DNA from: an uncultured Alphaproteobacteria bacterium
Lineage (GTDB): Bacteria; Pseudomonadota; Alphaproteobacteria; CADEGL01
NCBI GenBank assembly: GCA_902826885.1
Contig: CADEGL010000007.1
Span: forward strand, 10,588-74,587
Direction: 5' to 3'
Length of the DNA: 64,000 bases
The notes under the pieces were generated by a model. That model did not search any database. It had not been told where the DNA came from and saw only the letters and a list, made by a program, of their open reading frames with translations. Below, piece by piece: positions 14,658 through 37,187 of this stretch (the stretch's first letter is position 1; each line of letters begins with the position of its first letter). A program made the position numbers and the translations under genes.

Positions 14658-15449
14658 TCATTTTGCCGAGAGTTCCGCGATGGCGTAGCTGATGGCCTCC
14701 GGAGAAATGCTGATCTCGCCCCGGAACGGCCCGTCCAAGACCGCGAGGAAGGACACCATCAGCCCGATGGCGGTCAGCTTGATGCCGAGAAAAACGAAGC
14801 CATAAGGACGCACGATCAAAAGCCCCGCCAGAACACAGATGACGGCGATCAGGGCGCCGATCAGCCACCAGAAGATAGACAGCAGCCGCGTTTCCGACGC
14901 CGCGATGATACGGTCGTCGTGGTCCTGCTCCAGGTCGTTGACGGCGTCCAACATCCGGTCCGCGAGGCTGTTGTGGCCTTCCGGCAAGACGCTGATCGCG
15001 GCGCGAAGCCGCGCCATCAGGTCATAGACGCGATCGGAACCGTCGGGCGCACCGGCGCGCATCAGAGGCCAGTCTTCTTCGACCACGGCCTTGGCATAGT
15101 CGACGAGGATGCGCCGCGCTTCGGCCGTGCGTTCCTCACCGTAGTGGACCAGCATCCTGTCCAGGTGAACGAGGTTGAAAGCCTCCTCTTTCACCTTGCC
15201 GCCCAGCTTGGCCGTGGCTGTGCGCGCCTCGAGCGTGGAGAGCGACATCATCAACGCGGTCAGCGCGAAGATACCGATATAAACGATTTGGGCGTAATCG
15301 CGCGTCCTTTGATCGATTTCCAATCTCGTCAACCGCAGGGCGCGGTTGACCACCAAGCCCAGCAGCAGGCCCGCCGAAACGATGATCGCGATGAAGACGG
15401 CGAAAATCTGCCAATTCCGCGCGGCAGACAGAAAATGCTCGAGCCACAT
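14658..15449 (-). CDS. Membrane protein (DUF4239-like)
   Basis: It has two N-terminal and two C-terminal transmembrane segments. I chose the MWLEHF start over the MEIW start on RBS grounds. Confidence 0.5.
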   Translation of the reverse strand: MWLEHFLSAARNWQIFAVFIAIIVSAGLLLGLVVNRALRLTRLEIDQRTRDYAQIVYIGIFALTALMMSLSTLEARTATAKLGGKVKEEAFNLVHLDRMLVHYGEERTAEARRILVDYAKAVVEEDWPLMRAGAPDGSDRVYDLMARLRAAISVLPEGHNSLADRMLDAVNDLEQDHDDRIIAASETRLLSIFWWLIGALIAVICVLAGLLIVRPYGFVFLGIKLTAIGLMVSFLAVLDGPFRGEISISPEAISYAIAELSAK

Positions 15450-15599
15450 GCGCTTGCCCCCGCGTTCCGGCGCATCCCCTGCTGCATTCACCCATATTTC
15501 CATGCGATTTCAAAGCACAGGGGTGCTGTCGCCAGAGCCGTGGCGCTGGACTAGACTTTTCGTATCGTCCGGCAACGGCCACACAAGGAGAGGCATTCC

Positions 15600-15980
15600 A
15601 TGCTTGCCAACGTGATCTTTGGTGTGCGCGACATGAAGCGCGCCACTTCGTTCTATGACGCGATCTTCACGCCGCTCGGCTACAAGCGCGTCAGCACCGG
15701 CGAGAAGTTCACCGGCTATGGTCCGGCGGAGAAGGCCAACTTCTTCATCTGCATGCCGCGCAACGGCCAGCCGGCCACCGCGGGCAACGGCACCCAGGTC
15801 ACCGTCTCGGCGCCGGATACGGCCGCGGTGGACAAGTTTCACAAGGCAGCCCTGGCCTCCGGCGGCACCTGCGAGGGCGCACCGGGCTATCGCCCGCCCG
15901 AGAAGAAGACCTCTTATGCCGCGTATGTGCGCGATCCGGACGGCAACAAGGTCATGGCCGTCTGCAGCAATCCGAAATAA
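15600..15980 (+). CDS. VOC (glyoxalase/bleomycin-resistance) family protein
   Basis: VIFGVRDMKRATSFYDAIF is followed by a YVRDPDGNKV motif. An AAGGAGAGG RBS is present. Confidence 0.8.
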   Translation: MLANVIFGVRDMKRATSFYDAIFTPLGYKRVSTGEKFTGYGPAEKANFFICMPRNGQPATAGNGTQVTVSAPDTAAVDKFHKAALASGGTCEGAPGYRPPEKKTSYAAYVRDPDGNKVMAVCSNPK

Positions 15981-16025
15981 CGCCCAAGCCGGGCGGCCGC
16001 ATCGGCGGCCGCCCGGCACGGTACC

Positions 16026-16832
16026 GTGATGACGGCGCGCCGCTGGTTACCGCGATGGCTCCGTAGCTCGCCGCTTCTGGCGCTCCTGATGCTCGCGTGT
16101 ACCGCGGGGGCATGGGCGGCCACGACCTCTCCCGACGCCGACCGGGACGAGTTGGGCGAGTGCAAACGCGGCTATTACGCGTTGGGCCAAACCTGTATCC
16201 CGCTCGAGATGCCGGAAAACGCCCGGCTCGATTCCACCGGACACGCCTGGGTATGCCGCAGTGGCTTCTATCAGAGCGGTGCCCAGTGCCTGTCCGTGAA
16301 GATGCCCGTTCACGCCAAGTTGGATGGGACGGGGCACGCATGGGTCTGCGACAAGGGCTTCTATCGCGTGGACGACCATTGCGAGATCGTGTGCGAACGC
16401 GGCTTTCACAACGTGGGCCAGAAATGCGTTCCGATCTCGAAACCATCCCATGCGGCGCCGGCCGGCGGCACCCATGGCGACACGGCGGCGTGCCCGTATG
16501 GAACACGCGTGAACAGCGGCCAATGCGAACGGCTGAAACCGCCCGCGCACGCGTCGCTGGACAGGTCCGGACTCGATTGGGCCTGCGATGCCGGATTTTT
16601 CCGCTACGGCGAAGAATGCCGGCGCGTGTGCGGCAAGGGCTTCTACCGGGACGACAAGGATTCCTGCCAGCCCGTCGCGGTCCCGCCCAACGCCGCGCTC
16701 GACCGGTCGGGGCACAACTGGGCCTGCAACGCAGGCTTCATCGCCCAAGACAACGGTTGCGTCCCCGTTCCCCTCGACACAACGCCGCCGCGCAAATTCG
16801 GAGGCGGCGGCGCCAAGGAGAAAGCACCATGA
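16026..16832 (+). CDS. Secreted Cys-rich tandem-repeat protein (8 x CxxGFYxxxxxC modules)
   Basis: It has a signal peptide, then 8 Cys-pair modules. Linkers alternate between short and ~17-aa xPxNAxLDxSGHxW forms. Confidence 0.6.
   Translation: MMTARRWLPRWLRSSPLLALLMLACTAGAWAATTSPDADRDELGECKRGYYALGQTCIPLEMPENARLDSTGHAWVCRSGFYQSGAQCLSVKMPVHAKLDGTGHAWVCDKGFYRVDDHCEIVCERGFHNVGQKCVPISKPSHAAPAGGTHGDTAACPYGTRVNSGQCERLKPPAHASLDRSGLDWACDAGFFRYGEECRRVCGKGFYRDDKDSCQPVAVPPNAALDRSGHNWACNAGFIAQDNGCVPVPLDTTPPRKFGGGGAKEKAP
16161..16760 (+). repeat. Intragenic tandem repeats encoding CxxG[FY][YF]-x5-C modules with conserved P-x-[NH]A-x-LD-x-[ST]G[HL]-x-W linkers
   Basis: The repeated protein motifs are read directly from the translation. 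Confidence 0.6.
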
Positions 16833-17323
16833 ACTTGCCGAAGGAGCTGGTCGGTTATTGGGACCGCTATAAGGCCGAGACCGATCTTTATTGGGCACGC
16901 GTATGCAAGGAGAAGGGCATTTCCGGCGTGACGCCGCACATCTATCCCTGGACACAGGTTCCGGTGTTCGCCGACCTGATGCTGTTCCTGATCCTTCACG
17001 GCGGCAAAACCTCGACCGCGCATCTTCTTCTCGAACACGAGGTCAGCGGCAAGCCGCCGCACAAGGTGGGCGACTACAGCGTGGTGCTGGACGGATTCGG
17101 CCGTCCGGCCTGCGTCATCCGCACCACCTCGGTCGAGATCAAGCCGTTCCGCGCGGTGGACAAAAAATTCGCCATGGCCGAATCGGAAGGCGCGGGCGAC
17201 GTGCTCTATTGGAAGCAGGGCCACTGGTCCTTCTTCCAGCATTACTGCAAGGCACACGGCAAGGAGATGACCGAGGACACGCCGATGGTGTTCGAGTATT
17301 TCGAGCTGATCCACCCCGGCTAG
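16829..17323 (+). CDS. ASCH (PUA-like) domain protein
   Basis: It matches the ASCH consensus (LILHGGKTSTAH ... FAMAESEGAGDVLYWKQGHWSFF). An AAGGAG RBS is present and the start overlaps the upstream stop (ATGA). Confidence 0.65.
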   Translation: MNLPKELVGYWDRYKAETDLYWARVCKEKGISGVTPHIYPWTQVPVFADLMLFLILHGGKTSTAHLLLEHEVSGKPPHKVGDYSVVLDGFGRPACVIRTTSVEIKPFRAVDKKFAMAESEGAGDVLYWKQGHWSFFQHYCKAHGKEMTEDTPMVFEYFELIHPG

Positions 17324-17330
17324 GGGGCGT

Positions 17331-18020
17331 TTAACCCGGTAGGCGGTTGACCGCGTCGATGCGGTCGCCGGTGGCGGGATGCGAAGCGAAGAATCCGCCG
17401 CCGCCGGCGCCTTCGGTTTGATTGAGCCACGTGAGTGTACTGGCCATCAGCGTTTTGCCCGGATAGCCCGCGCGGTTGAGGATCTCGACACCGTGCGCGT
17501 CGGCCTCGGTCTCCTCGGAACGGCTGTAGGCGCTGGTCACCAGCGCGCCCGCCAGCGGCGTCAATTGACTGGAGCCCGGGACGATCTGTTCCAAGAGGAC
17601 GAAGCCGATATCCATGCCGGTTGCGAGGGTTTGGATCTTGGCCACGTGGCCCAAATCCTCGTGCGCGATCTCATGCGCCAAGATCGCGCGCAACTGATCG
17701 TCGTTGGCCTTCCGCAGCAGGCCGGTGGTGACGTAGAAATCGCCGCTGCCGCCATTGGCCGCGTTCACATGCGGATCGTCCCACACGGTGATCTTCACGC
17801 GATTCGCGGGGATGGGCCGATTCATCCTGGCAACGAGGGGTGTCATGATCGCCTGCAGGCGCTTGGCCTGATCCGGCGTGATCGCGATGGTCTTGGGTTC
17901 TTCGCTTTGTGCCTGCGGCGCGGGCTGGGACGAATCACCACCCTGGCCGCCGCCCTGCTGTGGGGCAACACAGCCGCCGAGGATCAGCACCAAGGCCACC
18001 GCGGACAGGAAAAGCTTCAA
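17331..18020 (-). CDS. M48-family metallopeptidase lipoprotein
   Basis: It has a lipobox (LILGGC) and an HEIAHE zinc motif. A GGAGG RBS precedes the TTG start. Confidence 0.75.
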   Translation of the reverse strand: MKLFLSAVALVLILGGCVAPQQGGGQGGDSSQPAPQAQSEEPKTIAITPDQAKRLQAIMTPLVARMNRPIPANRVKITVWDDPHVNAANGGSGDFYVTTGLLRKANDDQLRAILAHEIAHEDLGHVAKIQTLATGMDIGFVLLEQIVPGSSQLTPLAGALVTSAYSRSEETEADAHGVEILNRAGYPGKTLMASTLTWLNQTEGAGGGGFFASHPATGDRIDAVNRLPG

Positions 18021-37100: not shown

Positions 37101-37187
37101 TGGTGCCCCTGGCCGGACTCGAACCAGCACGATGTCGCCACCAACAGATTTTGAGTCTGCCGCGTCTACCAATTCCGCCACAGGGGC
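37101..37187 (-). tRNA. tRNA-Leu (anticodon CAA), class II with a long variable arm
   Basis: Manual fold gives a perfect 7-bp acceptor stem GCCCCTG/CAGGGGC, a GTTCGAGTC T-loop, the anticodon loop CTCAAAA and an encoded CCA. Confidence 0.85.

Follow-up and report, generated by a model that had tools for sequence, protein, structure and literature searches.

The EGF-like (epidermal growth factor-like) domains of the Plasmodium surface antigen fragment MSP1-19 (type structures 1N1I, 1B9W and 8DFI), covered in Pfam by PF12946, are the best structural match for a repeat in an uncultured Alphaproteobacteria bacterium. That repeat makes up most of a predicted secreted protein encoded in a 64,000-nucleotide stretch of contig CADEGL010000007.1 (positions 10,588 to 74,587, forward strand), which we refer to as the window. 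MSP1-19 and the bacterial unit are both extracellular, disulfide-stabilized two-hairpin modules, and they share the pattern (V/I)P-x-N-A ... W-x-C-x2-(F/Y)-x6-C-V-P. They differ in that the bacterial unit would have one disulfide, of the C5-C6 type, rather than two or three, and in that it occurs in 3-10 tandem copies rather than as a packed pair of EGF domains; in addition, three units of the window protein are reduced to the hairpin alone. We judge it moderately probable that the window carries a real gene for a Sec-exported string of disulfide-stapled bacterial EGF-like hairpin units, which would act as a binding module, and that its overlap with a downstream ASCH-domain gene is an operon junction specific to one lineage.

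A preliminary description of the locus, made from its letters without database searches, had read the protein as eight cysteine-pair modules alternating regularly with conserved 17-residue linkers, in a repeat family that it did not recognize. The modules were confirmed: eight C-x2-G-x-x-x(4-6)-C stretches (residues 46-57, 77-88, 108-119, 123-134, 156-167, 187-198, 202-214 and 234-245, numbered from the GTG start) carry 16 cysteines, and neither these nor the motif residues vary in any orthologue that covers them. The regular alternation did not hold up. The PxNAxLDxxGHxW linker is present at four of the junctions between modules, one junction is degenerate (KPSHAAPAGGTHGDTAA) and two consist of only 3 residues (EIV and RRV). 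Across 506 units in 143 proteins, the natural unit is 31 residues long, (V/I)x(V/I)PxNAxLDxxGxxWxCxRG(F/Y)xxxGxxC; module and linker, as first described, are therefore its two halves.

Nor is the family an unrecognized one. Exhaustive HMMER searching with a profile of the orthologues returned 1301 repeat-bearing protein clusters, defined at 50% identity, with E<=1e-3, of which 657 reach E<=1e-10, the best matched stretch always being query residues 44-121. Pfam PF12946 (EGF_MSP1_1) is matched by 87 of 124 relatives (E<=1e-3), with scores of 61.1 bits for P0010, 45.1 for P0008, 39.7 for P0007 and 38.6 for P0087 against a gathering cut-off of 27 bits. The window protein itself reaches 16.4 bits (E 0.009), and Pfam and NCBIfam scans of it alone produced sub-threshold matches only (VSP, EGF_MSP1_1, Sushi and MXAN_6577); it looked unfamiliar because it falls below the PF12946 cut-off, and its family link is visible only through its relatives. 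A profile of the bacterial units searched against the PDB retrieved Plasmodium MSP1-19 (9FP9, E 0.0075; 1N1I, E 0.026), with IPANA and xWRCLLGYKKNNNTC (WRCLLGYKKNNNTC) in alignment. A word-index search with a 62-residue profile returned only short hypothetical fragments. We conclude from these comparisons that the repeat belongs to a widespread bacterial EGF-like family already covered by Pfam, and that the window protein is a divergent member of it. A match to a known Pfam repeat of defined function had been named as one result that would overturn the preliminary description; such a Pfam family does exist, but it has no defined function in bacteria. Metal binding through the histidine of the GHxW motif was also considered and rejected, as only 30% of units family-wide have a histidine at that position.

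The window protein's own architecture emerged from a hidden Markov model (HMM) of the unit, 31 positions long and built from 88 units of foreign proteins only. Run against the window protein, this model recovered four full units, each scoring 39-48 bits (E 1e-14 to 1e-17), so the repetition goes well past what chance would give; two more matches, near 15 bits, cover half units that have the hairpin alone. An hhalign comparison of the foreign-unit profile (A4) with the orthologue alignment (A1) gave E 2.4e-14. The foreign profile thus recovers units with the P-x-N-A, G-x2-W-x-C and G-(F/Y)-x6-C elements of a bacterial single-disulfide EGF-like repeat, and the eight units stand in tandem behind what looks like a signal peptide, in keeping with the family's arrangement of tandem copies after a signal peptide or membrane anchor. 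Of the protein's eight units, four are full, three are half units with only the hairpin and one is degenerate (Table 1). The third half unit scores poorly because of an extra residue; its cysteines are invariant in the orthologues. The CPYGTRVNSGQC unit is not matched by the unit HMM, and its N-terminal half is a variable, low-confidence stretch. In the orthologue P0005 (L100 594-1421) an extra CKAGFTQLGDGTC hairpin is inserted exactly at the window's degenerate stretch (A1 columns 155-165), and this insertion, as aligned, shows gain or loss of modules within the clade.

Tandem Repeats Finder detected no tandem repeats at the DNA level, and the units are therefore old rather than recent duplications. 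Self-BLASTP of the window protein likewise showed no repeats, the units being too diverged, and the foreign-unit HMM took its place. No other copies of the repeat were found within the 64-kb window. With its half units and fast-evolving sequence, the window protein is a derived member of the family.

Structure prediction had also been proposed as a check. The full-length AlphaFold2 model, built on the orthologue alignment, is a string of short hairpins, with predicted local distance difference test scores (pLDDT) of 80-90 in the units and low values in the signal peptide, the degenerate stretch and the tail. Units A and B, modelled together on an alignment of 48 foreign double units, reached a pLDDT of 93.7 and a predicted TM score (pTM) of 0.69, with four short strands per unit. 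Foldseek comparison of the full-length model returned NELL EGF repeats, Pfs25, the uromodulin EGF domain, the EphA2 cysteine-rich domain and TNFR, all weak; for the A-B model the best PDB matches were MSP1-19 (8DFI with a probability of 0.92, then 1B9W and 1N1I), followed by TNFR1, NELL2 and R-spondin. MSP1-19 pairs superpose poorly on the A-B model (root-mean-square deviation about 11 A), so the geometry between units differs from that of MSP1-19. A classical EGF domain has six cysteines (paired C1-C3, C2-C4 and C5-C6) and two small two-stranded beta-sheets, its major and minor hairpins; both sheets are present in the AlphaFold2 model, and each unit has two cysteines. According to the model, the unit thus has an EGF-like fold that keeps just the C5-C6-type disulfide, and is not a canonical six-cysteine EGF. 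Each full unit would form two small beta-hairpins, the second closed by the single cysteine pair as the counterpart of the EGF C5-C6 disulfide.

The gene itself is well supported. Its open reading frame (ORF) on the + strand spans 16026-16832 with the start called mechanically at GTG 16026, but the true start is most likely ATG 16029, because this ATG is kept in four orthologous loci while the GTG is GCG or GCA in orthologues. The product would then have 267 residues instead of the 268 first described; and although the 16 cysteines originally counted are indeed those of the modules, the ORF holds 17, the extra one being C25 inside the signal peptide. Public gene calls begin at Met22 (window 16089; 247 residues; L097 1049-1792 and L098 2071-2814) and cut off the signal peptide; this start is probably wrong, because ATG 16029 and the Arg-rich n-region are conserved in the orthologues. 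A hydrophobic segment is detected at residue 14, the N-terminal region is conserved in orthologues, and cleavage at the AWA motif is likely. A lipoprotein was considered and rejected: C25, in LMLAC, is Gly in P0001, P0003 and P0005, leaving no conserved lipobox cysteine. The protein would be Sec-exported with about 236 mature residues, its disulfides being formed in the periplasm.

G+C content by codon position is 0.64/0.56/0.79 in the repeat gene, in a window of 65.7% G+C. The third-position value (GC3) compares with 0.80-0.85 in the neighbours, so the codon statistics are those of a normal coding sequence, not the atypical pattern that would have counted against the preliminary description. 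Pairwise ratios of nonsynonymous to synonymous substitution rates (dN/dS) against three orthologous loci are 0.20-0.26, with dS 0.6-0.9, and purifying selection acts on the gene. These data bear directly on whether the ORF is only a spurious open frame in G+C-rich DNA. Several long spurious ORFs do run across the region in other frames, which is common in DNA of 66% G+C; but a GC3 of 0.79 alongside a second-position value of 0.56, the dN/dS at such dS, the invariance of the 16 module cysteines and the homologous repeats in more than 1300 clusters together refute that explanation, to which we attach practically no credence.

Selection on the repeat gene is nonetheless 4-13 times looser than on its neighbours (dN/dS 0.015-0.05 for ASCH, 0.04-0.07 for VOC and 0.09-0.13 for M48). 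By dN/dS it is the fastest-evolving gene of the locus; in identity to L001, only a bestrophin-like gene (68%) is comparably divergent to the repeat protein (70%), with ASCH at 95%, VOC at 94% and most neighbours at 82-95%. Word-index searching found six close homologues of the repeat protein, at 63-83% identity, and there are five distinct syntenic orthologous loci. A scan of species-representative genomes yielded one orthologue, in a metagenome-assembled genome of an uncultured Rhizobiaceae bacterium, so the source lineage is poorly sampled.

Table 1. Features of the repeat-protein locus, in window coordinates
Feature	Coordinates	Strand	Details
VOC/glyoxalase-family gene	15600..15980	+	126 aa; PF00903 E 1.2e-6; 94-96% identical in orthologous loci
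Perfect 13-bp G+C stem, 4-nt loop	15988..16017	+	GCCGGGCGGCCGC-atcg-GCGGCCGCCCGGC; dG -44.7 kcal/mol, z -3.75 (predicted by folding)
Repeat-protein gene	16029..16832	+	267 aa from conserved ATG; orthologues 63-83% identity, dN/dS 0.20-0.26, GC3 0.79
Signal peptide (predicted)	16029..16118	+	Arg-rich n-region MTARRWLPRWLR, hydrophobic core PLLALLMLA, cleavage motif AWA/A; read directly from the sequence
Half unit 1 (hairpin only)	16158..16202	+	ECKRGYYALGQTCIP; unit HMM positions 17-31, 15.0 bits
Full 31-aa unit A	16203..16295	+	LEMPENARLDSTGHAWVCRSGFYQSGAQCLS; unit HMM 47.6 bits, E 5e-17; within AlphaFold2 model
Full 31-aa unit B	16296..16388	+	VKMPVHAKLDGTGHAWVCDKGFYRVDDHCEI; unit HMM 41.8 bits; within AlphaFold2 model
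Half unit 2 (hairpin only)	16389..16433	+	VCERGFHNVGQKCVP; unit HMM 15.2 bits
Degenerate unit	16434..16532	+	ISKPSHAAPAGGTHGDTAACPYGTRVNSGQCER; undetected by unit HMM; pLDDT <50 at residues 140-153
Full 31-aa unit C	16533..16625	+	LKPPAHASLDRSGLDWACDAGFFRYGEECRR; unit HMM 39.0 bits
Half unit 3 (hairpin only, 13-aa spacing)	16626..16673	+	VCGKGFYRDDKDSCQP; motif present; unit HMM -0.4 bits
Full 31-aa unit D	16674..16766	+	VAVPPNAALDRSGHNWACNAGFIAQDNGCVP; unit HMM 46.2 bits
Shine-Dalgarno for ASCH	16815..16822	+	AAGGAGAA; in last repeat-gene codons (K-E-K), 6 nt upstream
ATGA start/stop overlap	16829..16832	+	ATG 16829-16831, TGA 16830-16832
YhfF-type ASCH-domain gene	16829..17323	+	164 aa; PF04266 63.4 bits, E 3.5e-17 (cut-off 21.2)
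M48 metallopeptidase lipoprotein gene	17331..18020	-	PF01435 E 1.6e-24; LGGC lipobox

In the family at large, the repeat lies outside the cytoplasm and is reused as a module. A hydrophobic segment stands before the repeats in 125 of 143 relatives (a signal-peptide-like N-terminus in 68, an internal segment in 57), and the domains that accompany the repeats are PG_binding_1 (13 of 124 relatives), PG_binding_3 (2), PEGA (2), EAL (1) and TerB (1). In two relatives, P0014 (898 aa) and P0022 (944 aa), the first 520-560 residues match the PADLOC candidate-defence model STK_OB (E 1e-185 and 1e-238); this part is followed by a hydrophobic segment and then by 5-7 EGF-like units at the C-terminal end, an order of domains which suggests that the repeat can serve as the external sensor of a defence kinase. 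In general, then, the repeat would be the outward-facing part of membrane-anchored proteins with diverse cytoplasmic or periplasmic partners. By analogy with these relatives, we infer that the window protein is an extracytoplasmic binding or sensor module, perhaps an elongated one, with its ligand in the envelope or outside the cell. Its gene has a dN/dS 4-13 times that of the ASCH, VOC and M48 genes and yet keeps the motif residues, a combination typical of exposed binding proteins. A further feature of some membrane-anchored relatives (P0007-P0010, P0022 and P0027) is a shared, conserved segment (…LRYC…E..R.D……FN..V.DYNSRC..FRYR.G…) between the membrane span and the repeats; it often precedes PG_binding_1, and no Pfam model matched it.

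Several points weigh against this interpretation. Every named homologue is a 'hypothetical protein', with no ligand, phenotype or experiment for any member of the family, and literature searches on bacterial PF12946, on EGF-like periplasmic repeats of bacteria and on STK_OB turned up no relevant work. The binding role is drawn by analogy from domain architecture. Export of the window protein was judged by eye, and the conserved RR in its n-region leaves Tat export formally open as an alternative to Sec. The fold matches of the A-B model are statistically weak, with a best Foldseek E of 0.03, as expected for 30-residue units. Finally, the gene pair, the ATGA and the Shine-Dalgarno sequence are strictly conserved in five loci of the clade, so a functional link confined to that clade is conceivable.

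The junction with the ASCH gene is well defined. The 4-nt ATGA overlap and the ASCH domain downstream of it, both noted in the preliminary description, were confirmed. ASCH homologues carry the JGI name 'uncharacterized protein YhfF'; we know of no activity reported for the YhfF type itself. The PDB relatives 1T62 and 3S9X align with residues 48-162 at E about 1e-15, including the GxKT and AEGEG motifs, and the product is cytoplasmic because it has no signal peptide. Both the ATGA and the AAGGAGAA Shine-Dalgarno sequence are kept in the window, L001, L003, L100 and L097. The C-terminal tail of the repeat protein (16767-16832) is variable except for an invariant K-E-K...P (K264 and P268), and these residues are apparently invariant because their codons form the Shine-Dalgarno sequence and the ATGA of the ASCH gene, a constraint on the nucleotides. 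As read from these loci, the overlap is a true junction within an operon, and the Shine-Dalgarno sequence that serves it lies within the upstream gene. A fusion or frameshift joining the two genes was rejected: the ORF that runs long in the ASCH frame (16097-17323) is an artefact of high G+C, and L100 retains the ASCH N-terminus that begins at ATG 16829. As to what the ASCH protein does, the case of YqfB shows that an ASCH protein can act on small molecules, as an N4-acylcytosine amidohydrolase (PMC6972931). The closest homologues of the window ASCH gene (L004 5001-5498, L008 5001-5498 and L012 5001-5495) lie in small-molecule catabolic settings, one between PhyH and tautomerase genes and another near genes for cytosine/purine permease, creatininase, arginase and deacetylase. 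Such contexts fit a YqfB-like amidohydrolase role rather than RNA binding.

The strict conservation of the junction raises the question of whether the two proteins work together, with coupling setting their stoichiometry and the ASCH protein acting on whatever the exported protein binds or imports. In favour of such a pair, ATGA and Shine-Dalgarno are kept in all five loci that have both genes, and the genes stay together down to 63% repeat-protein identity. Beyond close orthologues, however, adjacency was not seen in the small sample inspected, three ASCH and six repeat contexts. ASCH homologues at 74, 71 and 61% identity occur in three unrelated settings (among insertion sequence elements; in a PhyH and tautomerase catabolic cluster; and with polysaccharide deacetylase, cytosine/purine permease and creatininase/SDR genes), where tblastn found no remnant of a repeat gene, and six distant repeat-family loci (three metagenomic, three cultured) have no ASCH neighbour. 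P0004, a 64%-identical orthologue, is apparently followed 13 nt downstream by a minus-strand gene instead, on a contig that appears to be without ASCH. Moreover, the two products belong to different compartments and evolve at very unequal rates (dN/dS 0.2-0.26 for the repeat gene, 0.015-0.05 for ASCH). We therefore hold a functional pair to be very unlikely. The pairing demonstrates co-transcription, not a conserved functional system: on the loci compared, it is a lineage-specific juxtaposition in one small clade, and the reading of the coupling as a sign of a functional link gives way to conservation of ATGA and Shine-Dalgarno within close orthologues only. We regard as equally doubtful the idea that the adjacent M48 lipoprotein metalloprotease has the repeat protein as a partner, substrate or inhibitor in the envelope. 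An extracytoplasmic location is predicted for both, their adjacency is conserved in L001, L003 and L097, 4 of 124 relatives weakly match cysteine-rich inhibitor families such as Antistasin, and one relative adjoins an M23 peptidase while another lies near a trypsin-like peptidase. Yet the M48 gene is not co-transcribed with the pair because it is convergent, none of the six distant repeat-family loci inspected has an M48 gene next to it, and the Antistasin-type matches are most simply explained as noise from the cysteine pattern. M48 homologues at 79 metagenome loci are at most 63% identical and have none of the window's flanking genes; as a search for a locus lacking the pair, this M48-anchored survey was uninformative, its next relatives being that distant and in unrelated contexts.

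A different alternative makes the family a surface module for sensing or shielding, linked to mobile elements and phage defence, with the window protein as a free, secreted form that would bind phage or conjugation-related structures. The two STK_OB defence-candidate kinases with C-terminal repeats speak for it, as do 28 plasmid or chromid records that carry family members, and so do three metagenomic settings (loci L013, L014 and L016): P0037 is flanked on one side by an integrase, AlpA and D5-type primase and on the opposite side by an M23 peptidase, TraG_N and SLT are found close to P0007, and P0049 has an integrase and a PIN/RHH pair in its vicinity. But these metagenome contexts were sampled at n=3; no phage record with a family member was found; neither PADLOC nor PHROG matched the window repeat protein, and PADLOC did not match the ASCH protein either; and the window locus shows stable chromosomal synteny, with the housekeeping neighbours AFG1, an ABC transporter and DUF983 and no mobile-element genes. 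This alternative is thus quite unlikely for the window protein. Among cultured Alphaproteobacteria, proteins with a signal peptide and seven units (257-279 aa, all hypothetical) are encoded on plasmids or chromids; their carriers are Methylocystis parvus, Rhizobium lentis, Phaeobacter porticola, Ensifer, Sinorhizobium and Paracoccus. Neighbours of the three such genes inspected include cold-shock, BON, DUF1488 and peptidase genes. L101 (Methylocystis parvus pMpar-1) and L103 (Rhizobium lentis p1), from distant Hyphomicrobiales, share a cold-shock gene and tiny hypothetical genes (BON, DUF1488 and an rpsU paralogue), which hints at a stress-related island.

A bolder proposal, unlikely in our estimate, is that the 31-residue unit is a distinct recognition module of bacteria, ancient and extracytoplasmic, with true homology to the MSP1-19 EGF domain of apicomplexans, that it is the sensor of otherwise unrelated signalling and defence proteins, that free forms such as the window protein bind the same class of envelope or foreign-surface ligand, and that in this clade it has been wired into an operon of VOC and ASCH-amidohydrolase genes with a purpose in common. 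If this were true, bacteria would use the unit as an outward-facing ligand sensor on STK_OB kinases, on EAL and TerB proteins and on PG-binding anchors. For the window itself the stakes are small, since what we favour here is a divergent member of a family that Pfam captures, at an operon junction without a conserved partnership. The remaining interest lies with the family, a widespread, unstudied, extracytoplasmic single-disulfide EGF-like repeat found in defence-candidate kinases and cell-wall-anchored proteins. The ligand of the family, once found, would annotate thousands of proteins and explain why the best match is to a malaria surface antigen domain.

The flanking genes are as the preliminary description had them, a VOC-family gene upstream (PF00903) and an M48 lipoprotein gene downstream (PF01435, with a lipobox). 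For the M48 protein, LoiP is the nearest NCBIfam model, but its 70.5 bits fall well short of the 365-bit cut-off. The VOC gene is probably co-transcribed with the repeat gene, because only 48 nt separate its stop from the repeat-gene start, and a search for promoter-like (sigma-70-like) sites in 15300-17600 found none; VOC, repeat and ASCH genes would thus probably form one operon. Most of the VOC-repeat gap is filled by a hairpin that ends 11 nt before the ATG and has no U tract. L001, L003 and L100 share this conserved hairpin, with compensatory base changes, a G-to-A paired with a C-to-T in L100 and C/G swaps at the top of the stem in L001 and L100. A dispersed palindromic element was rejected, the hairpin being unique in the window. 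It may be an attenuator, an mRNA stabilizer or a translation control element; placed after the VOC gene, it could modulate read-through or mRNA stability, attenuating transcription or stabilizing the upstream mRNA. Elsewhere in the window, ARAGORN and Rfam detected a single RNA gene, a tRNA-Leu(CAA) at 37101-37187 (-).

Among described systems, the ASCH protein resembles the COG4405-like, YhfF-type ASCH proteins represented by 1T62 and 3S9X; it matches PF04266 and aligns with both structures. The repeat protein has its nearest cultured counterparts in Methylocystis parvus WP_154420398.1, Rhizobium lentis WP_207244941.1 and Phaeobacter porticola WP_237029059.1, which consist of a signal peptide followed almost entirely by the same units, at about 257-279 aa and about 30% identity over 75-84% of the query. 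These three proteins differ from it in having seven regular full units (14-15 Cys) and no half units, and their genes are apparently monocistronic, with no ASCH neighbour. More broadly, the eukaryotic EGF-like, TNFR cysteine-rich and furin-like repeats are likewise elongated strings of small disulfide-bonded beta-hairpin modules that serve extracellular binding. The window protein matches them weakly (E 0.001-0.5, TM 0.15-0.45), is bacterial, and has two cysteines per unit where a canonical EGF needs six.

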